Of a DNA stretch of 37,632 bases, positions 1 to 33,211 are shown in pieces (positions within the stretch are counted from its first letter, which is position 1; each line of letters starts with the position of its first letter). The stretch covers positions 1 through 37,632 of the forward strand of contig CAYUYH010000002.1 in NCBI GenBank assembly GCA_964449175.1. Reading direction: 5' to 3'. A program made the translations under genes and the position numbers. Under the pieces are notes generated by a model, which worked only from the letters and a program-made list of their open reading frames with translations, was not told the DNA's origin and did no database searches. The DNA is from an uncultured Planctomycetaceae bacterium (GTDB lineage: Bacteria; Planctomycetota; Phycisphaerae; SM23-33).

Positions 1-56
1 CAGTGGGCCAAGAGGGATCCTAGGAAGACGTATGAGGAAACGCGGTCAGAGATACA

Positions 57-12698: not shown

Positions 12699-13032
12699 GG
12701 CAGGCAGGGGCGCCGTGAAGACCGCGATCTGCCGACCACGTCGTTGGCGGCAGGCGTAGAGCCGCGACAACAGTAGGCCTCTCCGACAAGAGGCTGGCCC
12801 CGCCGCCGCTTGGAGGCTATGTGCAACTTGCTCTGGCGATGATCCACCTGCGGTGTGAGGTGGTGAAAGTCATAACTGCGGAGCGGGTATTCCATACCAC
12901 ACGGTAAGGCTGGAGGCCTGTAACGACCAGGCAATTCCGGAAGTGCGCGCAGAATCGTCCACCACTTCTTGGGGCGGGGTGGTGATGTGTGACGTTATAC
13001 AGTGAGTGTGCCAGATCACACAGGAGAATCAG

Positions 13033-13455
13033 ATGCCCCCAACTACCCGAAGCATCCCAGAACTGAAGGCCGAAATCCGCAGGAAGGAGCGGGCGCTCCA
13101 GGGCCTGCTGGCTCGGCGGAAGAAGGTCCTTGCCCAGCTGGCGAAGATCGACCGTGAGATCATGGCCATTGGCGGCACGAGTACCGGAACACCTGGCCCG
13201 GCGACGGCGGTCGTGACGGGCCGAACACGCGGCGCGAGGCGATCTCGAGCCACCGGCAAGCCTCTGGCAGAGTACATCTCATCGATCCTGTCCAAGTCTC
13301 GCCGTCCGGTGCGGGCGCGCGACGTCGCAGCGGCGGTGGTCAAGGCCGGCTATCCGACACACAGCAAGAACTTCTACGGCATCGTGGCTGCCGCCCTTAG
13401 AGACGAGTCGCGATTCAAGCGGACCGGGCGAGGGCTCTACAAACTCGCCAAGTGA
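13033..13455 (+). CDS. Hypothetical 140-aa protein: N-terminal coiled coil, basic linker, C-terminal winged-helix (HARE-HTH-like) domain
   Basis: ATG at 13033 with AGGAGA 6 nt upstream. Coiled-coil segment IPELKAEIRRKERALQGLLARRKKVLAQLAKIDREI. C-terminal LAEYISSILSKSRRPVRARDVAAAVVKAGY...RFKRTGRGLYKL resembles small wHTH modules. Confidence 0.6.
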   Translation: MPPTTRSIPELKAEIRRKERALQGLLARRKKVLAQLAKIDREIMAIGGTSTGTPGPATAVVTGRTRGARRSRATGKPLAEYISSILSKSRRPVRARDVAAAVVKAGYPTHSKNFYGIVAAALRDESRFKRTGRGLYKLAK

Positions 13456-13594: not shown

Positions 13595-13969
13595 GCCTGG
13601 GCGGCCAAATATCCCCTTGCCATGCCGCTGGCGGAGGGTATCCTCCTTCAGTCAACAAGTTATCGGGAGCAACCGCGAGAGAAAGAGGACGCAACAGCTC
13701 CTGTGTACGTGCGTGGCGGTGCCACGCCTTCGCAACTGACTCGCCATTTGAACGGATTTGCCGGGAAGGGATTCCGCAACTGGCAATGGCGACAGCGCCG
13801 AAGCGCCCCGTCGGCCCAGCGCTTCTGTGCCAAGCTCCGGCCATCTCCCCCCGGATAGGTGCGGCGTCGGCAGCCGCCGGCGCGGAGAAGCATGTGTGTG
13901 GCCAGTGTGTCTTGGGAGCACGCCTGAGCCCGGCTGGCAACTTGGCCGGTGAAGGCGGAAGGCTGGCAG

Positions 13970-15400
13970 ATGGAACACGTCGAACAGACCGCGCTGTCCA
14001 GGGTCGTACTGGTGGGGGCGGGCAGCTCGAGCAGTGGGGCGGTGGGGGGCATCGTCTCGCGATTCTTCCAGGACGTCGTCGCCTTCCAGGACACATCAGC
14101 CGCGGCAAACGTCGAGACGAGCGGGCGGGCGGACCTGATACTGATCACCGAGAGCGTCTCGCCTGAAGACGCACTCGCTTTCCTTGCCGCCGCTCGGCTG
14201 CAATGGCCGACGACGCCCGTGGTCCGCGTGGCCGACAAGCCTAGCGTCGAGCTGGCCGTGCGATTCACCCGCGCCGGGGCGTACGACTACCTCGCCGGGC
14301 CGCTCGATGAGCAGCGCATGCGCAGACTCGTGGAGGGCATGATCGAGGAGGCCACTCGCAGATCCCCCGGCCAGGAGCGGTTCTTCTGCGACGAGTGCCC
14401 GCCGACCGTGCCCATCGTCGGCACGAGCGGGGCGATGGTCGAGGTCCTGGAGGCGATCCGCCTGGTCTCCGAGAGCAGGTGCAACCCGGTGCTGGTGCTG
14501 GGCGCGACGGGCACGGGCAAGGAGCTGGCCGCCCGGGCGGTGCACGCGTGGCGCTGCGGGGACGACAGCAAGTACCTGGCCGTGAATTGTGCGGCCCTGA
14601 CGGCGAACCTGCTGGAGAGCGAGCTGTTCGGGCACGTGAGGGGCGCGTTCACCGGCGCCGACCGCGACAAGACCGGCCTGTTCGAGGCCGCCGGCGACGG
14701 CACGATCCTGCTGGACGAGATCAGCGAGATGCCCCCCGCGCTCCAGGCGAAGCTGCTCCGCGTGCTCCAGGAGCGGTCATTCAGAAAGGTCGGCGGCACC
14801 AAGGACATCCCATGCCGCGCCACCATCGCCGCGTCCAGCAATCGCGACCTGCTGGCCGAGTCCAAGACGGGGCGGTTCCGCAAGGACCTGTATTATCGCC
14901 TGGCGGTTTTCCCGATAACCATGCCCGCCCTGGCCGGCGAGGACCGCAGGGGCGACATCCCGCTGCTGGCGGAGTACTTCATACGGACGTCGGCTATTCC
15001 GTCGGCCGGCGGGATAGCAGCCGTGAACAAGGCAGCCCAAGAGCAGTTGATGCAGCACGACTGGCCGGGCAACGTCCGCGAGCTGAGGAACGTCATTGAG
15101 CGGGCCATCATCCTCGAGCAGACCGGCGAGATCACGCCGGGCAGCCTGGTCATCGACGGCGCGAATGAGCAGCGACCCCCGGCGGCTGCGGTGGCTGAGG
15201 CCGCCGGCGACTTCGCACTGGAGACGGCTGAGCGCGAGTTCATCATCCGCGCGCTGAAGGAGACAGGCTGGCAGCGGACCCGGGCGGCGGCGCTGCTTGG
15301 CATAACTAGGGCGACACTGCACGCCAAGCTGAAGCGTTACGGCATCACCCCGCCGGCCGGCCAATCCAGTCCATCGGCCAGGGGGGCTGGCGGCACGTAA
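13970..15400 (+). CDS. Sigma-54-dependent enhancer-binding protein with a degenerate (non-phosphorylatable) receiver-like N-domain; FleQ/FlrA-like candidate flagellar master activator
   Basis: AAA+ Walker A GATGTGKE. GAFTGA motif. Walker B ILLDEISE. C-terminal Fis-type HTH AAALLGITRATLHAKLKRYGI. The N-domain has LILITE where DLxxLD is expected, VLVGAGSS instead of an acidic pair, and LAGPL instead of LxKP. Confidence 0.88.
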   Translation: MEHVEQTALSRVVLVGAGSSSSGAVGGIVSRFFQDVVAFQDTSAAANVETSGRADLILITESVSPEDALAFLAAARLQWPTTPVVRVADKPSVELAVRFTRAGAYDYLAGPLDEQRMRRLVEGMIEEATRRSPGQERFFCDECPPTVPIVGTSGAMVEVLEAIRLVSESRCNPVLVLGATGTGKELAARAVHAWRCGDDSKYLAVNCAALTANLLESELFGHVRGAFTGADRDKTGLFEAAGDGTILLDEISEMPPALQAKLLRVLQERSFRKVGGTKDIPCRATIAASSNRDLLAESKTGRFRKDLYYRLAVFPITMPALAGEDRRGDIPLLAEYFIRTSAIPSAGGIAAVNKAAQEQLMQHDWPGNVRELRNVIERAIILEQTGEITPGSLVIDGANEQRPPAAAVAEAAGDFALETAEREFIIRALKETGWQRTRAAALLGITRATLHAKLKRYGITPPAGQSSPSARGAGGT

Positions 15401-15432
15401 GCTCACCCCAGCCCCTCTCGCTCGCGTAAGTG

Positions 15433-15486
15433 GGCCTGCGTTGCAGCGCCAATGAGTTTCGGCGCCCGACGCAGGCCGCTGTTTTT
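15433..15486 (+). terminator. Intrinsic terminator after the FleQ-like gene
   Basis: Outer stem GGCCTGCGT (15433..15441) pairs with ACGCAGGCC (15469..15477). Inner stem GCGCC pairs with GGCGC. The hairpin is followed by GCTGTTTTTG. Confidence 0.6.
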
Positions 15487-15629
15487 GCGCCCGCCCGTCA
15501 GAAAACCAGGCGCACCGCGCCAAAAACCTTGCGCCGCTGCGCGATCGGGGCCGGCTGGAACACCTCGCCCGGCGCCCCCAATGCCCCCTTTCCGCTCGTC
15601 CGCGGGCGCCGCTCGCGTGTTCGGGCCTG

Positions 15630-15645
15630 TGGCATGGTGATTGCA
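15630..15645 (+). promoter_or_regulatory. Sigma-54 (-24/-12) promoter
   Basis: TGGCATGGTGATTGCA against consensus TGGCACG-N4-TTGCW gives a single C-to-T deviation. GG is at 15631..15632 and GC at 15643..15644 with the correct spacing. It is intergenic, between a sigma-54 activator gene and the flagellar operon. Confidence 0.7.
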
Positions 15646-15763
15646 GGGCGTGTTTCCTGTCGGACTGCGCCGCGCCCGCGCTATGTTGCGCGCGGGCGGG
15701 GTCACGGCGCAGGAAGCTCGCTCGCGCAGGGTGCAATTCGCGGAAAGGACGGACGCGTCAGGC

Positions 15764-18484
15764 ATGGCGGCCGAAGAGCAAGACACTCCTCAAGCCGACG
15801 AGCCACAGGCCCAGGGCGACCAGCCGTCGCAGCCTATCATTGATGACTCAGACGTGCGGGCTGCCGACAGGCCGGTCGCCCCGCCCGACGACAAGGGCGA
15901 CGAGCAGCCGGTCGAGCAGACTGAGCAGGCCGACTCCACCGGCCAGGAGCAAGCCGACGCGCCGAGCGACCAGACCCGCGAGACTGAGCAGGCCGACCCT
16001 GCCGAGCCCCAAGACGCAGAGCCCGTCGCCGAGGAAGCCGCCGCCCCGGCCGAGGAGCCCAACGGCGCGGCCAACGAGACGAGCGCCGAGCAGCCCGCCG
16101 ACCAGACAGCCACCGACGATGCCGCCCAGGTGGAACCGGCTGCTTCGACAGACGAAGCGGCCCGGCAGCCAGGCGAGTCGCCCGCCCCCGCCGAACCGAC
16201 CCAGCAGATCCCGGCCACTGTCTCGAAGTTGGCTGAGATCGTCGGCAAGCTGTCGCCGGTCAATCTCCTGCTGGTGCTCAACTCCGTGCTGATCCTCTTT
16301 GCTGTGGGCGGGCTGTTCTACCTGTTGTTGAGCAAGCCATCCCAGCCGATGACGCCGCGCGGCGCCCGCGCCGCCACCACCGCCCTGCAACAGACTTCCC
16401 CCGATGGGCCGACAGTCCGTCACTCCGGCGACGACAACGCTACCCTTAGCTGGGCGGATGCCGAGGGCCTGTACGAGCAGGGCGACTACGAGTCGGCCCT
16501 GGCCGGCTTCGTCAACCTGGCCAGACAAATCCGTTCTGTCCCGTCGGAGGACTTGCTCCGCGACTTGTTCGACCTCCGCGTGGCCCAATGCCTTGGGCAA
16601 TTGGGCGAGGGGGACGAAGCCAGCCTGACATTCCTTCGCCTTGCCTCCAGCGGCTCGGCGATCATCGCCGCGGTGGCCGACTACGAGCAGGCGAGCATCG
16701 ACCTGACCGCCGGCCGACACGCGCAGGGCCGAATCCGCGCCTATTCCGCCGTCGCCCACCTGGCCTCGCTGGAGGCGCCCTGCCCGCTCCAGAGAGACTG
16801 CGACTATCTGGTCGCGCGAATACTCACCCAACAGGTGCTGGGCTATCTCAACGCCGACAGCGCCGTCACCTGGCGCGACCCAGCCCCCTACGACCCGTTC
16901 GCCGGCAAGGCCCCCGCCCAGCTTCGACAGATGCTGCGTCAGGGTGCGGCCCCGCCCGCCAAGGCGGCGCTGGGCGCGATGGTGTGGAAGGTGGAAGCAG
17001 GCCCGGCGGAGGGCCGATGGATTGCCGCCTGCATCCGAGCGCCTGTCGAGGATCTGCTCCAGCGGTTCAGCTCCGAGTCGGGCGTGGCCGTCGAGTGGGT
17101 CTCGACGGCGCCGCTCGTCAGGCGCCGCGCGATCAGCCTGCACCTTGAGGGCGTCTCGCAGCAGCGGCTGGCGGAGGTGGCCTGCGGCATGGCCGGGCTG
17201 GTTGCCCGCTTCACCGGCGAGAGCATCGCGGTCCACGACCCCCAGGCGTGCGACAGCCTCGCCCAGCAGCGCGAACTGCTGATGGCCGAGGCGGAATCGT
17301 GCTGGCGGCGGTTCTTCATACGCTATCCGGCAGACCAGCGCACGGCGACGGGCCACTTCGTGGTGGCCGTCATGCACGATGCCTCCGGCGACAAGGCCAA
17401 CGCACTGACCCAATACCAATACGTCGCCGCCCAGTTCGACAAGCACCCCGTCGCCCCGCTCGCGCTGCTCCAGGCGGCCAAGCTCAGGATATCCCTGCGC
17501 GACTACAGCGGCGCGCGGACCGACCTGCTGGCCTTGATGGACCGCTACCCGGAAGCCGGACGGTCCGAGGAGGTGTACCTGCGCCTCGGACAGGCCACCG
17601 CCGAGACAGGCCTGACCGACGAGGCCATCCGCATATTCAAGAGGCTGTATTACCTTGATCTCTCGGCCGCGTCGAAGCGCCAGGCGGCGTTCTACCTCGG
17701 ACAGTGCCACTACCGCTCCGGGCGGTACAAGGAGGCGGTCGCCTGGCTGAGTCGCTACGCCGAGACCGCCGACGCCAAGACCGACGACAACGCTGCGGCC
17801 GCGCAACTGATGCTGGGCGATTCGGCTATGACCGCCGGAGACCTGAAGCTCGCGGAGAAGGCCTTCGCCGCGGCCAACAACTGCCAGCCTACGCCGTACC
17901 AGCGCGCCGAGGCGCTGCTGGGCGCCGCCGAGGCAGGCGCCCGCGGGCAGAAGCCGCTTGAGACGCTTGCGGCGCTCAAGCTGCTCGAAGGCCGACCGCT
18001 CACCGACCGCCAAACGTACAAGCGGCTGACCTTCACCGCCGGAGCGTATGCCTCGATGGGCCTGGAAGATCGCGCCGTCAGCTACCTCCGCAACCGAATC
18101 CAACTGATCGGCGACCTCCAGACGCGAGCCCTGCTGGTGATGGAGCTGGCCCGCTACTACGTCGAGCAAGGCCAGCTCGACAGCGCCCACGCCGCGCTGA
18201 CGGAGATCCTGGCCAAGATCGAGCCCGGGCGGGAGGCCTCCCTGGCCGCCTGCGAGCTGGCCGACGTGTGCATCAAGATGGGCAAGGCGGATCAAGCCGT
18301 CGCCGTCCTCGCCGAGACGCTCAAAGGTCCGTGCGATAAGGGCCTGCGGAACAGGGCGATGGAGACGCTGGCGTTGGCGAGGGTCTATCAGAAGCAGTAC
18401 CGCGCCGCGGCCGACGCCTTCACAGAGGTGGCCATACACAGGGCGGCCGCGGACGACAAACCGCAGGAGGGCCAGGGCAAATGA
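15764..18484 (+). CDS. 906-aa uncharacterised protein: acidic disordered N-terminus (~175 aa), one TM helix, ~690-aa TPR-rich (YbgF/BamD-like TPR) region
   Basis: D/E/Q/P/A-rich N-terminus. TM segment LSPVNLLLVLNSVLILFAVGGLFYLLL. Repeated TPR-like units such as YPEAGRSEEVYLRLGQA and AAFYLGQCHYRSGRYKEAVAWL. Start is ambiguous: ATG 15764 is preferred, ATG 15683 and the track start 15641 are possible. The stop overlaps the next ATG (ATGA at 18481). Confidence 0.75.
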   Translation: MAAEEQDTPQADEPQAQGDQPSQPIIDDSDVRAADRPVAPPDDKGDEQPVEQTEQADSTGQEQADAPSDQTRETEQADPAEPQDAEPVAEEAAAPAEEPNGAANETSAEQPADQTATDDAAQVEPAASTDEAARQPGESPAPAEPTQQIPATVSKLAEIVGKLSPVNLLLVLNSVLILFAVGGLFYLLLSKPSQPMTPRGARAATTALQQTSPDGPTVRHSGDDNATLSWADAEGLYEQGDYESALAGFVNLARQIRSVPSEDLLRDLFDLRVAQCLGQLGEGDEASLTFLRLASSGSAIIAAVADYEQASIDLTAGRHAQGRIRAYSAVAHLASLEAPCPLQRDCDYLVARILTQQVLGYLNADSAVTWRDPAPYDPFAGKAPAQLRQMLRQGAAPPAKAALGAMVWKVEAGPAEGRWIAACIRAPVEDLLQRFSSESGVAVEWVSTAPLVRRRAISLHLEGVSQQRLAEVACGMAGLVARFTGESIAVHDPQACDSLAQQRELLMAEAESCWRRFFIRYPADQRTATGHFVVAVMHDASGDKANALTQYQYVAAQFDKHPVAPLALLQAAKLRISLRDYSGARTDLLALMDRYPEAGRSEEVYLRLGQATAETGLTDEAIRIFKRLYYLDLSAASKRQAAFYLGQCHYRSGRYKEAVAWLSRYAETADAKTDDNAAAAQLMLGDSAMTAGDLKLAEKAFAAANNCQPTPYQRAEALLGAAEAGARGQKPLETLAALKLLEGRPLTDRQTYKRLTFTAGAYASMGLEDRAVSYLRNRIQLIGDLQTRALLVMELARYYVEQGQLDSAHAALTEILAKIEPGREASLAACELADVCIKMGKADQAVAVLAETLKGPCDKGLRNRAMETLALARVYQKQYRAAADAFTEVAIHRAAADDKPQEGQGK
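15918..15997 (+). repeat. 17-bp direct repeat AGACTGAGCAGGCCGAC x2 (in-frame, encodes xTEQAD) inside the acidic N-terminal region
   Basis: Copies at 15918..15934 and 15981..15997, 63 nt apart (21 codons). Confidence 0.8.
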
Positions 18485-19245
18485 CCAGGTGGATGCTCAT
18501 CCTGGCCCTTGTCGTCGCCCCGGCCACGTGCCTTGCCGCCGAGGCGACCAGCCAGCCCGCGCCGGCGGCCACCGCCGAACTGAACGATGGGATACGGCGG
18601 CTCCTCCGCACCTCCAGCCAGGCGCCCCAGGAGCAGGACGAAGGCGCCGCCGCCCTTCAGCGGGCAATCGAACAGCTCCGCTCCATCGAGATCGCGCCGA
18701 AGCGGCAGCCCCAGGCCGCCACCCAGCCGGCGGCAATGCCGGGCGCGCGGGCAACGACCCAGCCAGGGCGTCAGCCGTCCGACGCAGCCTCCGACCCGAT
18801 CGTGCTGGCCACGCTGAGAAGGCTGGGCGCCGGCAGGGCGGTCGATCCGGTCCTCGTCGCCGACGAGCTGTTCGCCGACGGGCAGTTGGAAGTAGCCGGC
18901 GCGTTCTACGAGGCGGCGCTGCTGCGAAGCCAGGGCGACGACGACCTGGCCTGGGCGCTGTTCCAACTGGGCAACTGCCGCCGCAAGTCCGATCCCCTGG
19001 CCGCCAAGCAGGCCTACACCGAGCTGGCGGCCAAGTGCCCCGACTGCCCGTGGGCCCAGGCCGCTGCCATGCGACTCAAGCTGATCGAGTGGGCCGAGGT
19101 CAACAAGCCGCTGGACGCGCTGGCCGAGGCGAAGTCCGCCGTGCGGAACGGCGCCGCTCGCCCGCGGCCGCAGACGCAGCCGGCCAAGGAGAACGAACCC
19201 GCCGCGGCATCCGGCACGGAAGGAAACACTGTAGCCAAGAGATGA
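18481..19245 (+). CDS. 254-aa secreted protein with a C-terminal TPR-like (YbgF/CpoB-type) unit
   Basis: Signal peptide MTRWMLILALVVAPATCLAAEA. Q/P/A-rich linker. TPR-like block AGAFYEAALL...AWALFQLGNCRRKSDPLAAKQAYTELAAKCPDCPWAQAAAMRL. AGGAGG Shine-Dalgarno. ATGA overlaps at both ends. Confidence 0.75.
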   Translation: MTRWMLILALVVAPATCLAAEATSQPAPAATAELNDGIRRLLRTSSQAPQEQDEGAAALQRAIEQLRSIEIAPKRQPQAATQPAAMPGARATTQPGRQPSDAASDPIVLATLRRLGAGRAVDPVLVADELFADGQLEVAGAFYEAALLRSQGDDDLAWALFQLGNCRRKSDPLAAKQAYTELAAKCPDCPWAQAAAMRLKLIEWAEVNKPLDALAEAKSAVRNGAARPRPQTQPAKENEPAAASGTEGNTVAKR

Positions 19246-20621
19246 GCGAGAAGGTCCATCAAAACGTGTTGATCGTCGATCGCGACGACGACTCGACCAG
19301 GCTGATCCTGGAAGTCCTGGCCGAGGCGGGCATCCGCGGGACGGTCGCCGCCGGCTGCGACGCCGCGGGCAAGCTGCTCGGCCAGACGCCGTGGGACCTG
19401 GTCATCCTCGATGCACAGGCCGCCGGCGACGCCTTCGCTGCGCTCGAGCGGATCAAGGAAGACTGCCCCGAGCTGCCGGTGGTGATGATCATCAGCGAGG
19501 CGTCGGTGGACCTGGCGGTGCAGGCCGTGCGGCGCGGGTTCCGCGACGTCCTGCCCAAGCCGCTGGACCGCGGCCGGCTTGAGGAGCTGCTGGCCGCGGC
19601 GCTGCCCAACCGGCCCGTCGCTCTGGCCGCCGCCGACGGCGAGGACCGCCGCTGCCTCTACCAGATCGCTGGGCGGAGCCGGAAGCTGCTGGAGGCGATG
19701 GAGCTGGCCAGCAAGGCCGCCCCGACTACCGCGTCGCTGCTGATCACCGGCGAGAGCGGCACGGGCAAGGAGCTGATCGCCTACCACGTCCACCGCAACA
19801 GCAGCCGCAGCCGCGGACCCTACGTCCACGTCAACTGCGCCGCGCTGAGCGAGTCGCTGTTGGAGAGCGAGCTGTTCGGTCACGAGCGCGGGGCGTTCAC
19901 CGGCGCGGTCTCGCAGAGGAAGGGCCGATTCGAGCGCGCGCACGGCGGCACGCTGCTGCTCGACGAGATCAGCGAGACGACGCCGCGCCTCCAGGCCGAA
20001 CTGCTCCGCGTGCTGGAGCAGCAGGACTTCGAGCGGCTTGGCGGCAGCGAGCCGGTCCGCGTGAACGTTCGCGTGGTGGCCACCTCCAACCGCCGGCTCG
20101 CCGAGCAGGTCGCCGCCGGACGGTTCCGCGAGGACCTGTACTACCGCATCGCGGGCATCATGGTCACCGTCCCGCCGCTGCGAGAGCGCGCCGAGGACAT
20201 CCCCGAGCTGGTGTGGCACTTCGTGAACCTCCACGCCAGGGAGGTCCGCCGAAGGATCGACCGCCTGGACGATGAGATGCTGGGGCGGTTCCGCGAGTAC
20301 CACTGGCCCGGCAACGTCCGCCAGCTCCGCAACGTCGTCCGCGCGGCGCTGATCCTCGGCGACGGGCCGACGCTGTCGCTGGAGGGCGTCCCGTCGCTGG
20401 TCGGCCAACTCGACAGCCCGCCGCCGCGGACGCCCCCGACCGGCCCGCTGAGTCTGGAGCTGCTCGAGCGGCAGGCGATATTCGAGGCCTTGCGCCGCAC
20501 CAACAGCCACCAGGCCAAGGCGGCAAGAATCCTGGGCATCTCCGACAGAACGCTGCGCGAGAAGCTCCGGCGGTACCGTCGCCAGACACAGACGCAGCAA
20601 GCAGAGGAGGTGGCATCGTGA
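19242..20621 (+). CDS. Sigma-54-dependent response regulator (REC + AAA+ + Fis HTH), FleR/FlrC/FlbD-like
   Basis: In-frame ATG at 19242 (MSEKVHQNVLIVDRDDD) overlaps the upstream stop. The receiver is canonical: acidic DRDDD, acceptor DLVILD, S in IISEAS, K in LPKPL. Walker A GESGTGKE. GAFTGA motif. HTH AARILGISDRTLREKLRRY. Confidence 0.9.
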   Translation: MSEKVHQNVLIVDRDDDSTRLILEVLAEAGIRGTVAAGCDAAGKLLGQTPWDLVILDAQAAGDAFAALERIKEDCPELPVVMIISEASVDLAVQAVRRGFRDVLPKPLDRGRLEELLAAALPNRPVALAAADGEDRRCLYQIAGRSRKLLEAMELASKAAPTTASLLITGESGTGKELIAYHVHRNSSRSRGPYVHVNCAALSESLLESELFGHERGAFTGAVSQRKGRFERAHGGTLLLDEISETTPRLQAELLRVLEQQDFERLGGSEPVRVNVRVVATSNRRLAEQVAAGRFREDLYYRIAGIMVTVPPLRERAEDIPELVWHFVNLHAREVRRRIDRLDDEMLGRFREYHWPGNVRQLRNVVRAALILGDGPTLSLEGVPSLVGQLDSPPPRTPPTGPLSLELLERQAIFEALRRTNSHQAKAARILGISDRTLREKLRRYRRQTQTQQAEEVAS

Positions 20622-20974
20622 GCGAGCCCAACACGATCAGTGGATTGCAGTCTGCCCTGCGGGCGTCGGCGCTCCAGGGCAAGGTCATCGCCAACAACAT
20701 CGCGAACCTCAACACACCCGGCTTCAGGCGGAGCGAGCTGGACTTCCAGCGGGCGCTGTCGATGGCCATGGCCTCGCCGCGGGCGCTGGAGCCGGCCGAA
20801 CTGGCCAGGGCCATCATCCAGCCGCGGTCCACGCCGGTCGACGCCAAGGGCAACGACGTCAGCCTCGACAAAGAGGTCGGCGAGATGATCAAGAACTCCG
20901 CGGCCTACAAGACGTACATGCGCATCCTGCGGAAGCTGTACAGCCAGATGGAGTTCGCCATCAAGGGCGAATAG
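20618..20974 (+). CDS. flgB: Flagellar basal-body rod protein FlgB
   Basis: GTG start in a GTGA overlap with the upstream stop; GAGGAGG 7 nt upstream. Motif ANNIANLNTPGFRR. C-terminal YKTYMRIL. Confidence 0.9.
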   Translation: MSEPNTISGLQSALRASALQGKVIANNIANLNTPGFRRSELDFQRALSMAMASPRALEPAELARAIIQPRSTPVDAKGNDVSLDKEVGEMIKNSAAYKTYMRILRKLYSQMEFAIKGE

Positions 20975-20987
20975 GGAGGCAAGGGCA

Positions 20988-21395
20988 ATGGACATAACCA
21001 AGGCGGCTTCATCAGTGGACATCGCGGTAAGCGGTCTTCAGGCTGAATCGCTTCGGCTGAACGTGATATCCGCGAACATCGCCAACGCGAACACGTCGCG
21101 CACGGACTCGGGGCTTCCGTATCGCCGCAAGGACGTGATCTTCTCGACGGTGATGGACAGCCTCTGCGGCGTGACGAGCAAACAGGTGATCGAGGACACC
21201 TCCACCGACTTCAACGAGACGTACCTTCCCGGCCATCCGCAAGCGGACGAGAACGGGTGGGTCATGATGCCCAACGTGGACCTGCCGGTGGAGATGATGA
21301 ACCTGATGGTGGCGTCGAGGGCCTACCAGGCCAACGCCTCCGTCCTGAACAGATACCAGCAGATGGTGGACATAACACTGGAGCTGCTTCGCTAG
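20988..21395 (+). CDS. flgC: Flagellar basal-body rod protein FlgC
   Basis: Motifs ISANIANANTSRT, YRRK, PGHPQADENGWVMMPNVDLPVEMMNLMVASRAYQAN. Confidence 0.93.
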   Translation: MDITKAASSVDIAVSGLQAESLRLNVISANIANANTSRTDSGLPYRRKDVIFSTVMDSLCGVTSKQVIEDTSTDFNETYLPGHPQADENGWVMMPNVDLPVEMMNLMVASRAYQANASVLNRYQQMVDITLELLR

Positions 21396-21410
21396 CAGCA
21401 GGAGCGAGAG

Positions 21411-21719
21411 ATGTCAGGCATAAACCCGATATCCGGCCAGGTCCCGGCGATTCAGCTAGGCGGCGCCGGCCAGCACGGCGGCAAGGCGGGCCCGCTGGCG
21501 GGCAAGTTCTCCCAGGCGATCGGCGAATACGTCAACAACGTCGACGCCGACCAGCAGGCCTCGACCGCGGCGATCGAGGACCTGCTGTCCGGGCGATCAC
21601 AAGACCCGCTGCCCGTGGTGGCGGCGATGGCCAAGGCCGACCTGAGCTTCAAGCTGCTCATGGGCGTCAGGAACAAGGTCATCGAGGCCTACAAGCAGAC
21701 CATCAACATGCAGATATGA
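21411..21719 (+). CDS. fliE: Flagellar hook-basal body complex protein FliE
   Basis: 102 aa. C-terminal AMAKADLSFKLLMGVRNKVIEAYKQTINMQI. Position after flgC. Confidence 0.9.
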   Translation: MSGINPISGQVPAIQLGGAGQHGGKAGPLAGKFSQAIGEYVNNVDADQQASTAAIEDLLSGRSQDPLPVVAAMAKADLSFKLLMGVRNKVIEAYKQTINMQI

Positions 21720-21741
21720 CAGCTGCGCGCGAGGCTGACAA

Positions 21742-23241
21742 GTGGCCGAGATGCTGAACAACCTGCGAGAGATCTGGCGACGGACGTCCCTGGTCCAGCG
21801 CGCGGTGCTGCTTGCGGTGCTGCTTGGCTGCGGCGGGGCTGCTGCGATGCTGATCGGCTGGGCACGCCAGCCAAGCATGGCGATGCTCTACAGCGGCCTG
21901 TCGACGGAAGAGGCCGCCGCCATCGTGGAGAGAATCCGCGATGAGGGCGTGCCCTACGAGTTGAAGGCCGGCGGCACGGCCGTCTACGTGCCGGAGCAGA
22001 AGGTCTACCCCATGCGGCTGCTGCTGGCCGGGCAGGGCCTGCCGACAGGCGACCAGGCGGGTTATCGAATCCTCGACGACGAGAAGATCGGCGCCAGCCC
22101 GTTCATCCAGCGCGTCAACTACAACCGCGCGATCGAAGGCGAGCTCAGCAAGACCATCCAGACGCTCCAGGGCGTCGCCTCCGCCCGCGTGCATGTGGTC
22201 AGGCCGGAGGCCACGCTGTTCTCCGGGCAGGAGAAGGAGGCCTCGGCCTCGGTCGTGCTGAAGCTGCACGCCGGCAGGCGGCTGGGGCCGGGCAGCGTAT
22301 CGGCGATCGTTCACCTTGTGGCCGGCGCCGTGGAAGGCCTGAAGCCGGAGAAGGTCGTGGTCGTGGACAGCGCGAACAACCTTCTCTCGGCCGGGGGCGA
22401 AGACGACGTAGCCAAGAAGGCCGGCTCGTTCCTCGACTACAAGAGCCAGGTCGAGCAGTACCTCGCCGGCAAGGCCGAGGACATGCTGGCCGCGGCGCTC
22501 GGGCCGAACCGCGCGTCGGTCCGCGTCCATGCCGTCATCGAGACGTCCACCATGGAGGAGACCGTGGAGACGTACGATCCCGCAAACAGGGTCGTCGCCA
22601 AGGAAGAGACGAAGAATCGCTCGATCTCCGGCGCCGCCGACACCACAGGCGGCACGCCGAGCAAGGAGACCGAGAAGAGCTCCACCACCGAGTACCTGGC
22701 CAGCCTGACACGCCGTCGCCAGGAGAGCCTCCCCGGCAAGATTCAGTCCATCACCGTCGCCGCCCTGGTGGACCTCTCGCCGGCGGAGCAGGCTGGAGGC
22801 AAGGAAGGCGCCGCTCCGGAGAAGGTCATGACAGTCGAGGGCGTCACCGAGATCATCCAGAAGGCCCTGGGACTGCCCGACGCCACCGGCATCACCGTCC
22901 AGGAGACCAGCTTCTACCACCCCGCGCCGGCCGAGGCCGCCGAGGCGTCCGACGGATGGTTCACGAAGGACTTCATGCTCGAGATGGGCAGGCGGCTGTC
23001 GCTGGCCGTGCTGGTGGTGGGGGCGCTGATCACACTGAAGGTGCTGGGCGGCTCGCGCAAGGCCGCGGCCAGCGCCGCCGCGGCGCTGGAGGGCGAGGCC
23101 GCCGGGCAGAACCTCCTGCCCGCGGGCGCCGGCGCCGACGCCGAGCAGTTGCGAGCGAAGATAACCAACGCCCTCCAGAGCAACCCCGAAGAGGTCAAGC
23201 GGTTGTTCCTGAGCTGGGTCGACAGCGACAAGGGAGCGTAG
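21742..23241 (+). CDS. fliF: Flagellar MS-ring protein FliF
   Basis: N-terminal TM helix. Motifs LYSGLSTEEAAAIVERIRDEGVPYEL and YPMRLLLAGQGLP. C-terminal TM helix. GTG at 21742 (GAGG 8 nt upstream) or ATG at 21751. Confidence 0.9.
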   Translation: MAEMLNNLREIWRRTSLVQRAVLLAVLLGCGGAAAMLIGWARQPSMAMLYSGLSTEEAAAIVERIRDEGVPYELKAGGTAVYVPEQKVYPMRLLLAGQGLPTGDQAGYRILDDEKIGASPFIQRVNYNRAIEGELSKTIQTLQGVASARVHVVRPEATLFSGQEKEASASVVLKLHAGRRLGPGSVSAIVHLVAGAVEGLKPEKVVVVDSANNLLSAGGEDDVAKKAGSFLDYKSQVEQYLAGKAEDMLAAALGPNRASVRVHAVIETSTMEETVETYDPANRVVAKEETKNRSISGAADTTGGTPSKETEKSSTTEYLASLTRRRQESLPGKIQSITVAALVDLSPAEQAGGKEGAAPEKVMTVEGVTEIIQKALGLPDATGITVQETSFYHPAPAEAAEASDGWFTKDFMLEMGRRLSLAVLVVGALITLKVLGGSRKAAASAAAALEGEAAGQNLLPAGAGADAEQLRAKITNALQSNPEEVKRLFLSWVDSDKGA

Positions 23242-23244
23242 CAG

Positions 23245-24231
23245 GTGGTGCTCACGGGAAAGCAGAAGGCGGCGATGTTGCTGATGAGCCTTGATCCGGC
23301 CACGGCTGCGGACCTGCTGCGCTCAGCCGACCAGAAGGTGCTCACCGAGATTGCCGCCGAGTTGGCCTACCTGGAGTCCATCGGCGCCGACAAGGCGCAG
23401 GCAGCGAAGGCGACGGCACAGGAGTTCTTCGGCAAGCTCGGCAGCGGCGGCGGGGGCGAGGGCGTGTTCGTTCGCAACATGCTCGAGCAGGTGCTGGGCA
23501 AGGACAAGTCCAAGGAGGCGCTGACCAAGGTCCGCGCGATGGTCCAGCAGCGCGACCCGTTCTCGGCGGTCCGCTCGGCCGAGACGGCTGACATATTCCG
23601 CGCGATCTCCGGCGAAAGCGCCCAGGTGGTCGCGATAGTCCTGGGCGAGCTGCCCGCCAAGAAGAGCGCGGCGCTGCTGAACATGCTGGCCGAGCAGCTT
23701 CGGATCGAGGTGGTGGGCAAGCTGGCGACCGGCGTCTCAGCCCCGGGCGAGGTCCGCCTGCGCATCGCGGGCACACTCCGCGCACGCCTGCAAGCCTCCA
23801 CCGCCGAGGGCGGCGCCGCCGGAGGCGAGGAGAACCTCCGCAAGGTGGCCATGCTGCTGCGCGACCTGGAGGCCGAGCCGCGCAACAAGACGCTCGAAGG
23901 CATCGCCCAGCGCGACAAGGAGACGGCCGACGCTGTCTCCAAGCTCATGGTCATCTGGGAGGACATCCCGCTGGTACTCTCGCGAAGCCTCCAGGAAGGC
24001 CTGCGTCAGGCCGAGGCACGCCAGCTCGCACTGGCCATCAGGGACGCGGACGAGCGGATCATCGCCAAGATCCGCGAGAACCTCTCCGAGCGGGCCGTCG
24101 CCGCGCTGGACGAAGAGGCCGAGCTGCTCAGCGCTCCCAAACAGACTGAAATAGCAGAAGCGCGGGAGGCAATCCTGCAACTGCTACGCGACATGAACGC
24201 AGCCGGCAACCTGCGGTGGGAGGAATCCTGA
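23245..24231 (+). CDS. fliG: Flagellar motor switch protein FliG
   Basis: Motifs LTGKQKAAMLLMSL and EIAAELA. C-terminal charged-helix region ALAIRDADERIIAKIRENLSERA. Confidence 0.9.
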   Translation: MVLTGKQKAAMLLMSLDPATAADLLRSADQKVLTEIAAELAYLESIGADKAQAAKATAQEFFGKLGSGGGGEGVFVRNMLEQVLGKDKSKEALTKVRAMVQQRDPFSAVRSAETADIFRAISGESAQVVAIVLGELPAKKSAALLNMLAEQLRIEVVGKLATGVSAPGEVRLRIAGTLRARLQASTAEGGAAGGEENLRKVAMLLRDLEAEPRNKTLEGIAQRDKETADAVSKLMVIWEDIPLVLSRSLQEGLRQAEARQLALAIRDADERIIAKIRENLSERAVAALDEEAELLSAPKQTEIAEAREAILQLLRDMNAAGNLRWEES

Positions 24232-26629: not shown

Positions 26630-27259
26630 ATGATGAAGAGCAACCTACTCATACTGGGCGTGCTTGGTGCGGGGTGCTTTGGGCTGTCGTTCGGCCTGAC
26701 CTGGCTTTTCGGCGGGTCGACGCCGGGCCCGCAGCTCGCCACAGACCAGCAGGCCGCCACCCAGCCGGCCGTCGAAGAGCCACAACTGATGCCCAGCGAG
26801 ATTCAGGTCGACGAGCTGGTGCGTGACCTGCACGACAAGCTCGCCCAGGTGCGCCGTCAGCAACGCCACCTGGAAGACTGGGAGAAGCGCCTCAAGATCG
26901 CCCAGCAGGACCTGGACAAGCAGACCGAGGAGCTGGAGGCCCTCCGCGTGCAGTTGCTGGCCCCGCTGAACGGACTGAAGCAGGCCAGGGAAGAGCTGCT
27001 GCGAACGCGCATCTCCATATCTCGCGCCGAGCAGGCCAAGCTGAAGCAGCTTGCGCTCATCTACGACAAGATGGACTCCGCCGCCAGCAGCGAGATCCTG
27101 GTGGCCATGTGCAACAACAACCAGATAGCCGACGCCGTCAAGCTGCTGAGCTGCATGTCGGATCGTCCGGCCGCCGAGCTGCTGGGGCAGATGGAAGACA
27201 AGGCCCTGGCCGCCAGGCTGTCCCAGATGCTCAAGACCGTCCAGGAAGAAGAAAGCTGA
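26630..27259 (+). CDS. FlbB/MotE/YlxF-like flagellar protein (N-terminal TM helix, coiled coil, MgtE_N-like C-terminal domain)
   Basis: TM segment LLILGVLGAGCFGLSFGLTWLF. Long coiled coil. C-terminal LALIYDKMDSAASSEILVAMCNN...LLSCMSDRPAAELLGQM resembles the MgtE N-terminal-like domain. It occupies the post-fliJ slot held by flbB (Borrelia) and ylxF (Bacillus). Confidence 0.55.
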   Translation: MMKSNLLILGVLGAGCFGLSFGLTWLFGGSTPGPQLATDQQAATQPAVEEPQLMPSEIQVDELVRDLHDKLAQVRRQQRHLEDWEKRLKIAQQDLDKQTEELEALRVQLLAPLNGLKQAREELLRTRISISRAEQAKLKQLALIYDKMDSAASSEILVAMCNNNQIADAVKLLSCMSDRPAAELLGQMEDKALAARLSQMLKTVQEEES

Positions 27260-27263
27260 CGCC

Positions 27264-28034
27264 GTGGATATCGCCACAGCCATAGGACTGATGTTCGGGC
27301 TGTTCTGCGTGGTCTCGTCGATCATGTCGTCGCCCGGGGCCGGCGTGTTCATCAACCTCCCGGCGATGATGGTGACGGCCGGCGGCATGACCGCGGCGAC
27401 GTTCATCCATTTCTCGCTTCAACAGGTTCTCACCATCTTCTCCATCACCAAGAAGACGATCCTCTGCAAGGTGCCGGGCGAGAAGGAACTCATCCAGAAG
27501 TTGGTCAACTACGCGGCCATCAACCGGCGAGACGGCGCGCTGGCGCTGGAGCAGCACCTGCCGGACGCGGGCGACTCGTTCCTGGTCAAGGCCCTCCAGA
27601 TGGTGATCGACGGGCAGAAGGAAGAGGCCATCGGCGAGAACCTGGCGATGGAGATTCAGTATCTCCAGGAGCGCCATAGCGACGGCAAGAAGATGCTGGA
27701 GTTCATGGGCAGCGCCGCGCCGGCCTGGGGCATGATCGGCACGCTGATAGGCCTGGTGCAGATGCTCGGCTCGCTGAACGATCCCTCGCAGATCGGCTCG
27801 GGCATGGCTACCGCGCTTATCACGACCTTTTACGGGTCGTTCATGGCGAACCTGGTGTTCATCCCGCTGGCCGGCAAGCTGGGGATGCGATCGAAGAAGG
27901 AAAGCCTCATCAGGCAGATGATCGTCGAGGGCGCCTGTGGCCTGAGCCGCGGCGACAGCCCCACCGGCGTCCGTGAGCGGATGCAGGCGTTCATCTCCGA
28001 CAAGCACCGCGAGGAAATGAAACCGAACATCTGA
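27264..28034 (+). CDS. motA: Flagellar stator protein MotA/PomA
   Basis: GTG start. Motifs MDIATAIGLMFG and AAPAWGMIGTLIGLVQML...GMATALITTFYGSFMANLVFIPLAGKL. Confidence 0.93.
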   Translation: MDIATAIGLMFGLFCVVSSIMSSPGAGVFINLPAMMVTAGGMTAATFIHFSLQQVLTIFSITKKTILCKVPGEKELIQKLVNYAAINRRDGALALEQHLPDAGDSFLVKALQMVIDGQKEEAIGENLAMEIQYLQERHSDGKKMLEFMGSAAPAWGMIGTLIGLVQMLGSLNDPSQIGSGMATALITTFYGSFMANLVFIPLAGKLGMRSKKESLIRQMIVEGACGLSRGDSPTGVRERMQAFISDKHREEMKPNI

Positions 28035-28036
28035 CC

Positions 28037-28717
28037 ATGGCACAGGATCAGGCCAAACCGCCGCCGAAGGACGAAGGGCCGCCCGGACCGGGCGCCTGGA
28101 TGATCAGCTTCAACGACTGCATGACGAACATGCTGTGCTTCTTCGTCCTGCTGGCCAGCTTCTCGTCATTCGACCCCGCGTCTCGCGCCAGGATCTCCGG
28201 CGGCTTCCGGGCCATGAGCCTCTCCTCGGTCTTTTCGTCGCGCTACTCGCCCACGGACTCATCCTTCCCGCCAATTGACCGTCCCGTCGACAGGACCGAG
28301 ACCGGCAGCGAGAAGCCCACCGACGGCATGGACAACGTGATGAACCCGCGGGAGAGCTTCTGGCTGGACTGCGACGACGCCTACAAGGCCAAGCAGGAGT
28401 TCTACATCCCCTCGAGCAGGCTGTTCTGGGGCCAGGGCAGCGCGCTGAGCCCGTCCGGGCGGGAGTTCCTGGACATGCTCGCTCCGCACATGCGGAACAT
28501 GCCGCACCAGATCGTCATAGGCCAGGCCGGCGCCGGCGAGTTGCCGCCGGACTCGACGGTGGCGCGGTCGGCCGTGGTGCTCGGGTACCTGACGCGCAAC
28601 GGCGGCGTGTCGGCCGACAGGATGAGCATATCCGCCGACGTCCAGGCGGCGCCCAAGCGGTTCGGCGACAAGCCGGTGATGAGAATCGTCATGCTGCAAC
28701 GGAGCGTGTACAAGTGA
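28037..28717 (+). CDS. motB: MotB-like stator subunit, paralog 1 (divergent OmpA-like C-terminus)
   Basis: N-terminal WMISFNDCMTNMLCFFVLLAS contains the conserved Asp that precedes the TM helix in MotB. C-terminal GSALSPSGREFLDMLAPHM...ARSAVVLGYLTRNGGVSADRM is OmpA-like but lacks a clear GHTD-type block. Confidence 0.75.
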   Translation: MAQDQAKPPPKDEGPPGPGAWMISFNDCMTNMLCFFVLLASFSSFDPASRARISGGFRAMSLSSVFSSRYSPTDSSFPPIDRPVDRTETGSEKPTDGMDNVMNPRESFWLDCDDAYKAKQEFYIPSSRLFWGQGSALSPSGREFLDMLAPHMRNMPHQIVIGQAGAGELPPDSTVARSAVVLGYLTRNGGVSADRMSISADVQAAPKRFGDKPVMRIVMLQRSVYK

Positions 28718-29454
28718 AACGCGCGGCCCCACCACCAGAAGACGCGCCCGAGGGCGTGCCCGGATGGGTCCTGTCCTTCGGAGACATGGTGACGAACCTG
28801 ATGGCATGCTTCGTGCTGTTGCAGTCCATGGCGTCCACGCAGGACAAGACGCTGTTCAACGCCGGGCTGGGGTCGTTTCGCCAGGTCGTGGCGCGGTTCG
28901 GGATGCCCAGTTGGCTGTTCGGCAAGCAGGAAGCGCCGAATCTGGACTACGAGAAGCTGAAGTATCCCACCGAGCCGGCCGAGCAGCAGCAGGCCGTCCC
29001 GAATCGTGTGGTGGACGCCGAGGATGAGGAAATCAGGCAGATCTTCAGCAGGTTGAAGGAGCAAATCGACAGCGAGGCAACGGAGTTCGCCGAAAGGCCG
29101 ATACGGGTGGAGGCCATGCCGGTCGCCTTCACGCCCGGCGAGGCGTCGCTGCCGGAGAGCCTGCGCGACAGTCTGCGGGCCTTCGCGACCAACCTGAAGC
29201 AGAACTCCCCTCGCGACGATATCAAAGTCTACGTGATCGCCCGGGCCGAAGATGTCGCCGATCCGGCGCGGCAGTGGGCCGTCTCGGCCGGGCGGGCAGC
29301 GGCGGCCGCGGCGGAGATCAAGCGACAGCTGGCGCCGATGACGTGCGAGATTCACTCCTGGGGCGCCGGGCCCGGCAGCGACATGGAACGGATGTTCGGA
29401 CCGCAGTCGACGGTGGTCATCGCGGTGACCGCACCGAGGAATCGAAATGGCTGA
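28714..29454 (+). CDS. motB: MotB-like stator subunit, paralog 2 (divergent OmpA-like C-terminus)
   Basis: GTG start in a GTGA overlap with paralog 1. WVLSFGDMVTNLMACFVLLQS has the conserved Asp + TM helix. C-terminal FTPGEASLPESLRDSLRAFATNL...AVSAGRAAAAAAEI is OmpA-like. Confidence 0.75.
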   Translation: MKRAAPPPEDAPEGVPGWVLSFGDMVTNLMACFVLLQSMASTQDKTLFNAGLGSFRQVVARFGMPSWLFGKQEAPNLDYEKLKYPTEPAEQQQAVPNRVVDAEDEEIRQIFSRLKEQIDSEATEFAERPIRVEAMPVAFTPGEASLPESLRDSLRAFATNLKQNSPRDDIKVYVIARAEDVADPARQWAVSAGRAAAAAAEIKRQLAPMTCEIHSWGAGPGSDMERMFGPQSTVVIAVTAPRNRNG

Positions 29455-31487: not shown

Positions 31488-31503
31488 TGGCACGCACTGT
31501 GCA
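31488..31503 (+). promoter_or_regulatory. Sigma-54 (-24/-12) promoter immediately upstream of fliO
   Basis: TGGCACGCACTGTGCA against TGGCACG-N4-TTGCW gives one deviation (first T of TTGC is G). GG is at 31489..31490 and GC at 31501..31502. It lies in the only sizeable (136-nt) gap inside the flagellar cluster. Confidence 0.6.
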
Positions 31504-32929: not shown

Positions 32930-32941
32930 GGACGCGCGCGC

Positions 32942-33211
32942 ATGAACGGAGACCTCGTGCTCTACATAGGCCGGCGGATGCTAGAGGTGTCGCTGCTGGT
33001 CGCAGCGCCCGTGCTGCTGGCCACGCTGCTGCTCGGCCTGCTGGTGGCCATGATGCAGGCGGTCACGTCCATCCGCGACATGACGCTCGGGCTCGTGCTC
33101 AAGATCGCCTGCGTCGGCGTCGTCCTGCTGATCACCGGAAGCTGGATGCTCCAGACCACTATGGACTTCACCGCGGAAATCTTCAACCACATGCAGACGC
33201 TGGGACACTGA
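32942..33211 (+). CDS. fliQ: Flagellar export gate protein FliQ
   Basis: 89 aa, two TM helices. Motif LLVAAPVLLATLLLGLLVAMMQAVTSIRDMTL. Confidence 0.92.
   Translation: MNGDLVLYIGRRMLEVSLLVAAPVLLATLLLGLLVAMMQAVTSIRDMTLGLVLKIACVGVVLLITGSWMLQTTMDFTAEIFNHMQTLGH

Follow-up and report, generated by a model that had tools for sequence, protein, structure and literature searches.

Two conserved, predicted periplasmic tetratricopeptide repeat proteins head a sigma-54-dependent flagellar operon in uncultured Planctomycetota

Position and conservation of the TPR gene pair

We analysed a 37,632-nucleotide (nt) stretch of DNA (the window) from an uncultured Planctomycetaceae bacterium, a flagellar locus of high GC content (~68%), focusing on two genes encoding tetratricopeptide repeat (TPR) proteins, here termed TPR1 and TPR2. 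On the basis of its open reading frame (ORF), its homologues and an AlphaFold2 model, TPR1 (15764..18484, + strand) is predicted to be a single-pass inner-membrane protein of 906 amino acids (aa). The TPR2 ORF (18481..19245, + strand) translates into a predicted secreted protein of 254 aa, the end of which reads ...YTELAAKCPDCPWAQAAAMRL... The pair stands between two sigma-54 activators, EBP1 and EBP2, and the + strand order begins EBP1, TPR1, TPR2, EBP2, flgB, flgC, fliE, fliF, fliG, fliH, fliI and fliJ. It continues with a gene for a 209-aa protein, motA, two motB-like genes, fliL, fliM and fliN, followed by fliO, fliP, fliR, flhB and flhA.

A sigma-54 (-24/-12) promoter, TGGCATGGTGATTGCA, lies at 15630..15645 (+ strand) within the 363-nt gap between EBP1 and TPR1. 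The only exact match to TGGCAY-N5-TTGC in the whole window (15630-15644) is found here, 119 nt from the TPR1 ATG. In each of the seven distinct loci checked (the window and six others), a sigma-54 motif stands 33-159 nt before the start of TPR1. No sigma-70-like promoter or + strand terminator was found within 15300-21000. The genes downstream overlap, sharing ATGA at the TPR1/TPR2 junction (18481-18484), ATGA at the TPR2/EBP2 junction (19242-19245) and GTGA at the EBP2/flgB junction (20618-20621). The initial annotation of this DNA had placed two TPR genes directly after a sigma-54 promoter and listed these three overlaps, and its coordinates were reproduced exactly. Given the overlapping genes, the sigma-54 promoter and the lack of an internal promoter or terminator, TPR1 and TPR2 open a sigma-54-dependent early flagellar operon. 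TPR1, TPR2, the NtrC-type activator EBP2 and the early basal-body genes flgB, flgC, fliE, fliF and fliG (20618..24231, + strand; assigned by Pfam matches) thus form one sigma-54-driven transcription unit.

This arrangement is conserved. The order TPR1-TPR2-EBP2-flgB-flgC-fliE-fliF-fliG was found in 17 of 17 distinct related loci whose downstream flank was long enough to show it, including those of distant TPR1 members of 1144 and 1222 aa. Among the seven related loci with gene calls, the 4-nt TPR1/TPR2 overlap seen in the window recurs in six and the EBP2/flgB overlap in all seven, whereas four have a spacer of 11-40 nt between TPR2 and EBP2 instead of an overlap, making TPR2-EBP2 the least conserved junction of the module. 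All named records of the family come from metagenome-assembled genomes labelled Phycisphaerae, Planctomycetota or similar. These data support the TPR1/TPR2 pair as a conserved, lineage-restricted component of flagellar loci, as had been surmised from the window, and the proposed check of whether the pair, the regulator and flgB stay together across related genomes is positive at every one of the 17 loci.

TPR1 has 28 homologous clusters (90% identity level) that are 28-43% identical, while orthologues of TPR2 from five related loci share 29-38% identity. Even TPR1 homologues that are 27-39% identical keep the same architecture. The shared architecture, the existence of orthologues and the confident TPR1 model indicate that TPR1 and TPR2 are real genes. 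Among the curated family models of Pfam and NCBIfam, neither protein passes a threshold; NCBIfam holds no model of TPR2 and gave no TPR2 match at E ≤ 0.01. Thus, the view that neither belongs to a described family stands. The sole product name attached to family members is 'tetratricopeptide repeat protein'.

Predicted architecture of TPR1 and TPR2

The AlphaFold2 model of TPR1, generated with 26 family members as input, has a mean predicted local distance difference test (pLDDT) score of 80, with values >90 over most of aa 230-890. By composition and pLDDT, aa 1-164 (15764..16255, + strand) form an acidic disordered tail that is predicted to be cytoplasmic: aa 1-167, up to the hydrophobic window, contain 41 D/E and 7 K/R residues, and pLDDT is <50 over aa 1-156. 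Among homologues this tail ranges from 0 to 346 aa, is not alignable and is of low complexity. The sole transmembrane helix, aa 165-189 (16256..16330, + strand), is predicted by hydropathy together with a helix in the model and is conserved in 26 homologues. Within it, Asn173 (16280-16282) is found in 20 of 26 homologues and is followed by Thr or Ser, which hints at a specific intramembrane contact.

Across the 26 family members, the 15 residues N-terminal to this helix contain 78 K/R in total, compared with 40 in the 15 residues C-terminal to it. This excess suggests that the TPR1 N-terminus is cytoplasmic and that the remainder, two TPR blocks around an N0-like domain, is periplasmic (N-in/C-out). 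The predicted signal peptide of TPR2, the near-invariant cysteines of TPR1 and the extracytoplasmic location of all N0/STN matches retrieved (see below) support this topology. The cysteines in question, Cys276 (16589-16591), Cys346 (16799-16801) and Cys474 (17183-17185), are present in 26, 25 and 23 of 26 homologues, respectively, and are possible sites of periplasmic disulfides. We infer that the conserved parts of both TPR1 and TPR2 are all periplasmic and anchored to the inner membrane.

In the model, a first TPR-like block of 7 helices (~3 hairpins) covers aa 230-362 (16451..16849, + strand) and is connected by a short helical linker to a central alpha/beta domain. A second TPR block of 21 helices (~10 hairpins), identified in the model and by Pfam, covers aa 499-896 (17258..18451, + strand), bringing the total of repeat helices to 28. 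Pfam matches in TPR1 were to TPR_16, TPR_21, TPR_19 and TPR_2, and the NCBIfam YbgF model TIGR02795 matched aa 508-602 at 69.7 bits, below its cut-off of 90.1. Of TPR1, ~700 aa are therefore predicted to be periplasmic, with the secretin-N0/STN-like domain standing between a short TPR block and a long TPR superhelix.

The ~85-aa central domain, assigned from the model and Foldseek, spans aa 406-491 (16979..17236, + strand) and carries the most conserved segment of the family, the motif EVACGxxGLVARFTG. Its elements follow the order beta-beta-alpha-beta-alpha-beta-alpha-beta-beta, with strands at aa 406-409, 419-427, 442-446, 456-464, 480-483 and 487-491 and helices at aa 428-439, 450-453 and 466-476. 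Predicted alone, the domain reached a pLDDT of 87. The best Foldseek matches were the secretin N0 domains of InvG, MxiD, EscC, GspD, PilQ and XcpQ; further matches comprised DotD and the signalling domains of the TonB-dependent transducers FpvA, PupA and FoxA. The scores were modest (E 7e-3 to 0.2), with the best superpositions giving a root-mean-square deviation of 2.5-2.9 Å over 71-78 columns. Pfam returned weak matches to TcpQ (0.0037, in 4 of 20 members), DotD (0.1) and STN (0.085), all below the gathering score but in line with the Foldseek result. A sequence search of the PDB with the central-domain profile produced chance matches only; the fold was assigned from the structure model, in which the domain has an N0-type alpha/beta fold (two beta-alpha-beta units).

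At E ≤ 1e-3, the central-domain profile matched 267 clusters (representatives at 50% identity), 212 of them at E ≤ 1e-10; neither Pfam nor NCBIfam contains a model of this family. Among the 150 matches listed, most proteins are 650-1200 aa long with the domain in mid-protein. A separate homologue search with an N0-domain alignment yielded one 191-aa fragment only. The genome-collection scan used a 9-sequence alignment and finds only loci with the exact peptide [VA]GLVARFTG; as it is tied to this motif, the taxonomic range is under-sampled, and no cultured host was found within it.

TPR2 begins with a signal-peptide-like hydrophobic N-terminus, followed by a partly conserved helical segment, a P/A/Q-rich linker and a C-terminal two-motif TPR. 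The orthologue alignment and PDB profile matches delimit a conserved CpoB/YbgF-type TPR unit of ~80 aa at aa 125-205 (18853..19095, + strand). Invariant positions in the alignment of six orthologues are A127, D128, Y143, L147, W158, Q162, N165, C166, Y179, W191 and W204. Over positions 137-210, the profile of these six sequences matched consensus TPR proteins, CpoB (6g5s, E 3.6e-5) and BamD, and hhalign aligned the TPR2 unit with aa 507-570 of TPR1 (E 4e-5).

Most of what the initial annotation had described for the two proteins is recovered here: the acidic disordered N-terminus and single transmembrane helix of TPR1, the signal peptide of TPR2 and the presence in TPR2 of the same kind of TPR unit as in TPR1. 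Its description of TPR1 as ~690 aa of YbgF/BamD-type TPR was partly right, in that there are two TPR blocks, with YbgF-type repeats at aa 508-602; it missed the non-TPR N0/STN-like domain at aa ~406-491. The Foldseek comparison that it proposed for TPR1 retrieved only generic TPR proteins at full length, while the central domain led to the secretin N0/STN folds.

Sigma-54 activators and candidate partners

The activator upstream of the pair, EBP1 (13949..15400, + strand; Pfam and alignment), has a receiver domain that lacks the phospho-acceptor Asp. The acceptor position is Thr in the window and His, Ala, Ala and Asp in orthologues. FleQ and FlrA likewise have receivers without the acceptor Asp, and its absence from EBP1 in the window and in most orthologues suggests that EBP1 is FleQ/FlrA-like. 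EBP1 precedes TPR1 in 12 of 20 related loci; counting only the 17 whose gene order is complete, it does so in 11.

EBP2 (19242..20621, + strand) is a sigma-54 activator that, according to Pfam and its sequence, combines a divergent receiver with an AAA+ domain carrying GAFTGA and with HTH_8 (Pfam Response_reg; Sigma54_activat, 1.4e-65; HTH_8, 6.7e-11). It passed no NCBIfam equivalog cut-off. Across 120 orthologues (57-67% identity), the receiver retains the acceptor Asp in 84%, the Lys in 72% and the Ser/Thr in 34%; the aligned acidic-pair positions are kept in 14% and 36%, and the full canonical five-residue set occurs in 1 of the 120. At least two acidic residues are present in the receiver loop of 75 of the 120. 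A strong claim, made from a 16-sequence alignment, that EBP2 is a pseudo-receiver was withdrawn, given that the larger set keeps the Asp in 84%. The earlier description of EBP2 as a 'canonical' FleR/FlrC-like regulator is likewise overstated, as the receiver pocket is divergent both in the window protein and among the orthologues. Phosphorylation of the receiver is possible.

The Pfam search of TPR1, TPR2 and the other large ORFs of the window gave no HisKA or HATPase_c match, in agreement with the initial annotation. On this domain content, a reading of TPR1 and TPR2 as sensor kinases of the FleS/FlrB/FlgS kind was rejected. A cognate kinase next to the genes in related genomes had been envisaged as well; the Pfam gene tables available for eight related loci list none within 10 kb, with one table stopping right after TPR1.

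Sigma-54 motifs also precede the divergent fliK-flgD-flgE-flgF-flgG-flgA-flgH-flgI operon in five of six related loci (- strand; L001 ~6776, L005 ~9457, L007 ~7754, L020 ~9478 and L021 ~2846), which suggests a two-tier sigma-54 cascade. The fliK-flgD-flgE operon lies outside the window, where the upstream region holds redox genes (for a hybrid-cluster protein, a ferredoxin and a flavodiiron-like protein). Between the hybrid-cluster-protein gene and EBP1, a basic 149-aa protein without a Pfam or NCBIfam match is encoded at 13006-13455 (+ strand), and the first 1000 nt of the window (1-1000) have a GC fraction of 0.55 compared with ~0.68 in the remainder.

Among the other products of the operon, the 209-aa membrane-anchored coiled-coil protein encoded after fliJ (26630..27259, + strand) is, by position and layout, a candidate E-ring protein of the FlgY/FlbB/YlxF type. 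The protein, kept in seven related loci, starts with a membrane anchor, continues as a coiled coil and ends in a conserved helical domain of ~70 aa. Pfam matches to FliG_M (0.0033) and MgtE_N (0.022) were both marginal, and the PDB search returned no match, so that homology to FlgY/FlbB was not confirmed. The place of the gene beside fliJ agrees with published flgY synteny (PMC13023049). By analogy, this protein is a possible partner of the TPR pair. The stator genes that follow, motA and two motB-like genes (27264..29454, + strand), were assigned by Pfam MotA_ExbB and by MotB_plug twice. The first motB-like gene (28037-28717, + strand) matches MotB_plug only, and the second (28714-29454, + strand) MotB_plug together with a weak OmpA match. 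Their products, again by analogy, are candidate clients of a periplasmic scaffold.

Sigma-54-like motifs with one mismatch occur at 28802-28816 (+ strand), within the second motB-like gene, and at 31488-31502 (+ strand), 13 nt 5' of the fliO start; both may be meaningless, as ~4.5 such matches are expected by chance per window. Further downstream, the FliR ORF (32884-33966, + strand) encodes 360 aa, and its Bac_export_1 match begins only at aa 120. As no separate fliQ is listed, the 5' portion of the FliR ORF probably conceals fliQ or carries it as a fusion.

A possible motor scaffold, its alternatives and comparison with known systems

With moderate confidence, and by analogy, we propose that TPR1 and TPR2 form an inner-membrane-anchored periplasmic motor scaffold of this uncultured Planctomycetota (Phycisphaerae-type) clade. 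TPR1 would span the inner membrane so that the variable acidic tail is cytoplasmic and the TPR-N0-TPR region periplasmic, while TPR2 would be exported via its signal peptide and present a small TPR unit of the CpoB/YbgF type on a flexible linker. As in better-known systems, the two proteins may bind each other, and by the same analogy the pair may come together around the MS ring and the rod while the flagellum is at an early stage of assembly. Comparable structures would be PflA/PflB in Campylobacterota, the FlcA-type collar in spirochaetes and MotC/MotK in alpha-proteobacteria. The N0-like domain could serve as an oligomerisation or docking module, and the TPR grooves could accommodate partners, for instance the MotB paralogues, FliL or the FlgY/FlbB-like product of the gene after fliJ. 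The linkage to the activator would then reflect co-expression of early flagellar genes, not signal transfer.

We base the scaffold proposal on the conserved operon order, the conserved promoter, the periplasmic topology, the TPR-N0-TPR model and published precedents for TPR proteins at the motor. The Tol-Pal-type TPR similarity and the occurrence of an E-ring candidate and two MotB paralogues in the operon also count in its favour. An inner-membrane or periplasmic scaffold and a checkpoint input to the regulator had been offered side by side in the initial annotation; the topology fits the former, and the latter is weakened by the lack of conservation of the cytoplasmic tail.

Several points weigh against a scaffold. 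Every homologue is known from metagenome assemblies, and the role is read from sequences and models. No specific similarity of TPR1 to PflB was found: a Foldseek search with full-length TPR1 retrieved generic TPR proteins, with the Campylobacter jejuni scaffold chain 9hmf_K in 21st place, surrounded by eukaryotic TPR proteins, at a template modelling (TM) score of 0.21-0.24. Given this rank and a TM score of about 0.2, the 9hmf_K match was rejected as evidence of homology. TPR2 differs from PflA in being only 254 aa long, in having two TPR motifs and in lacking a detected beta-sandwich domain; PflA is ~790 aa in size. Sequence support for the E-ring candidate is marginal. Furthermore, a purely structural role leaves the invariant position of the pair right before the activator unexplained, and a non-structural role as an assembly factor fits the same data about equally well.

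Such a factor, resembling CpoB/YbgF, would act transiently in the periplasm, coordinating the remodelling of peptidoglycan or chaperoning parts of the rod, P-ring or stator during passage of the basal body through the envelope. In line with this, aa 508-602 of TPR1 are YbgF-type, the TPR unit of TPR2 and some of its layout are CpoB-like, the two genes come first in an early operon, and secretion systems also employ N0 domains and TPR proteins as pilotins or for docking. The computed data do not separate this role from that of a scaffold. However, no peptidoglycan-binding or enzymatic domain was detected with Pfam or NCBIfam, and a membrane anchor joined to a ~400-aa TPR superhelix is more typical of stable scaffolds (PMC12222027). 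We therefore regard an assembly factor as unlikely, though it is the alternative that survives best.

A third possibility is that the pair takes the place of a kinase, sensing the assembly state in the periplasm, perhaps by way of the STN-like domain, and controlling EBP2 across the membrane, comparable to FliX-FlbD and to FlgS, which responds to the export gate and MS ring. The pair is always directly upstream of EBP2, no kinase is present in the window or listed near related loci, the EBP2 receiver is divergent (16% of orthologues are without the acceptor Asp), STN domains are signalling modules in TonB-dependent transducers and the membrane helix of TPR1 carries a conserved Asn. However, the cytoplasmic tail of TPR1 (0-346 aa) is of low complexity and unconserved, sometimes absent, and thus offers no conserved surface for contact with EBP2, leaving only the membrane helix conserved; moreover, TPR2-EBP2 coupling is less conserved than that of TPR1-TPR2 or EBP2-flgB. 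As EBP2 retains the acceptor Asp (84%) and Lys (72%), an unlinked kinase is a plausible and simpler explanation. Campylobacter FlgS/FlgR is one of the flagellar systems that have an unlinked kinase. Overall, an input that replaces the kinase seems improbable. A specific version, a kinase-free trans-envelope checkpoint in which the N0/STN-like domain and TPRs would sense completion of a substructure and the Asn-bearing helix would control EBP2 in lieu of a FleS/FlrB-type kinase, is decidedly improbable. The earlier argument from the kinase slot is correct in that no kinase adjoins the regulator; beyond this it is a positional analogy, and the conserved parts of the proteins in that slot are predicted to be periplasmic.

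A polar landmark or placement factor similar to HubP/FimV would be membrane-anchored and have an acidic low-complexity region and TPR-like motifs. The N-terminal region of TPR1 is indeed acidic and disordered, and aa 794-818 gave a weak FimV_Cterm match (22 bits, E 1.2e-4). This score is under the cut-off of 30.65 bits, Pfam found no LysM domain, the acidic region is short or absent in many homologues, and the conserved parts are instead the periplasmic repeats and the N0-like domain. A placement role is highly improbable in our assessment; a FimV/HubP-like identity was rejected on domain content, namely the missing LysM and the sub-threshold FimV_Cterm. Finally, general envelope proteins that merely share the promoter of the flagellar operon are extremely unlikely: TPRs are generic and a flagellum-specific domain is absent, but 17 of 17 loci keep the same order in spite of only 27-39% protein identity, under a conserved sigma-54 promoter and with overlapping genes.

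If TPR1 and TPR2 do form a motor scaffold, Planctomycetota would have their own version of the stator-holding spoke-and-rim structures of high-torque motors, built from a different parts list with a Tol-Pal-type TPR and a secretin-type N0 domain. In Campylobacterota, AMIN and N1 modules are proposed to have been borrowed from the type IV pilus secretin (PMC11870540), and a second independent case involving a secretin module would support repeated recruitment of envelope-machine modules by flagellar motors. For annotation, the family can be recognised by the transmembrane-TPR-N0-TPR layout, the EVACGxxGLVARFTG motif and a gene that stands first in a sigma-54 flgB operon. The loci also document, for this clade, a two-activator sigma-54 flagellar hierarchy without a linked kinase.

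This hierarchy resembles FleQ-FleS-FleR of Pseudomonas and FlrA-FlrB-FlrC of Vibrio, in that there are two sigma-54 activators, the upstream one is without the acceptor Asp and, as in FleSR/FlrBC systems, the second directly precedes early basal-body genes. The sigma-54 promoters in front of the divergent hook operon of related loci are a further point of likeness. It differs from them in having two predicted periplasmic TPR proteins in the position of the kinase gene and in the divergent receiver pocket of its second activator.

Similarities to Tol-Pal proteins concern both members of the pair. Residues 508-602 of TPR1 fall on the YbgF model and the TPR2 profile on CpoB (6g5s), and TPR2 resembles CpoB in its predicted signal peptide, linker and C-terminal TPR. 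CpoB/YbgF belong to the tol-pal operon, whereas the TPR pair is flanked by sigma-54 activators and flgB; in addition, TPR1 is much larger and membrane-anchored, and its YbgF score is under the cut-off. With secretin N0, DotD and STN domains, TPR1 aa ~406-491 appear to share the same fold, although the Pfam sequence scores of the TPR1 domain are far under the thresholds. An N0/STN domain between two TPR blocks of an inner-membrane-anchored protein is a trait of TPR1 that occurs in none of the solved structures retrieved.

Among flagellar scaffolds, the TPR proteins PflA, FlcB, MotC and MotK pair with an ARM-like E-ring protein that is usually encoded beside fliJ or fliK, and the TPR partners stabilise the stators, according to a 2026 review (PMC13023049). 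The spirochaete FlcA/FlcB/FlbB and alpha-proteobacterial MotC/MotK-MotE systems share with the window TPR-rich periplasmic proteins and, in the candidate encoded after fliJ, a possible E-ring protein. This likeness is one of layout and gene position; a sequence relationship was neither tested for nor detected. MotK carries an AMIN domain where TPR1 carries an N0-like domain, and, in contrast to FlcB/MotC-type systems, the E-ring candidate here has marginal MgtE_N/FliG_M similarity.

PflA and PflB are, like TPR1 and TPR2, a pair of periplasmic TPR proteins linked to flagella. The C. jejuni motor has 17 PflA spokes, which position the 17 PflB of the rim around the stators. The PflA linker is bound in a TPR groove of PflB, and PflA consists of a signal peptide, an N-terminal beta-sandwich (AMIN-like) domain, a linker and ~16 TPRs (PMC12222027). 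The defining marks of PflB given in a 2025 preprint are a transmembrane motif and, midway along the TPR array, a beta element (PMC11870540). TPR1 resembles PflB in its many TPRs and its membrane helix, and the long flexible linker of TPR2 could, like that of PflA, bind a TPR groove. A beta-containing module also lies in mid-array of TPR1, but it is predicted to be a complete ~85-aa N0-like domain, compared with two 5-residue strands in PflB. A further difference is that the TPR1/TPR2 genes head a sigma-54 flgB operon. As judged from sequences and models, TPR1 is thus like PflB in layout without detectable shared ancestry, and TPR2 is not PflA-like.

TPR proteins are encoded in or near the flagellar clusters of ~52% of flagellated species and have been proposed to form widespread PflA/PflB-like spokes (PMC11870540), an idea also raised in PMC13023049. 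As a class, flagellar-cluster TPR proteins are therefore already known as spoke or rim candidates; the literature searched held nothing specific on flagellar accessory proteins of Planctomycetota. What is new relative to that literature and to the curated libraries is the transmembrane-TPR-N0-TPR architecture, the CpoB-like partner and the fixed place of the pair at the head of a sigma-54 flgB operon.

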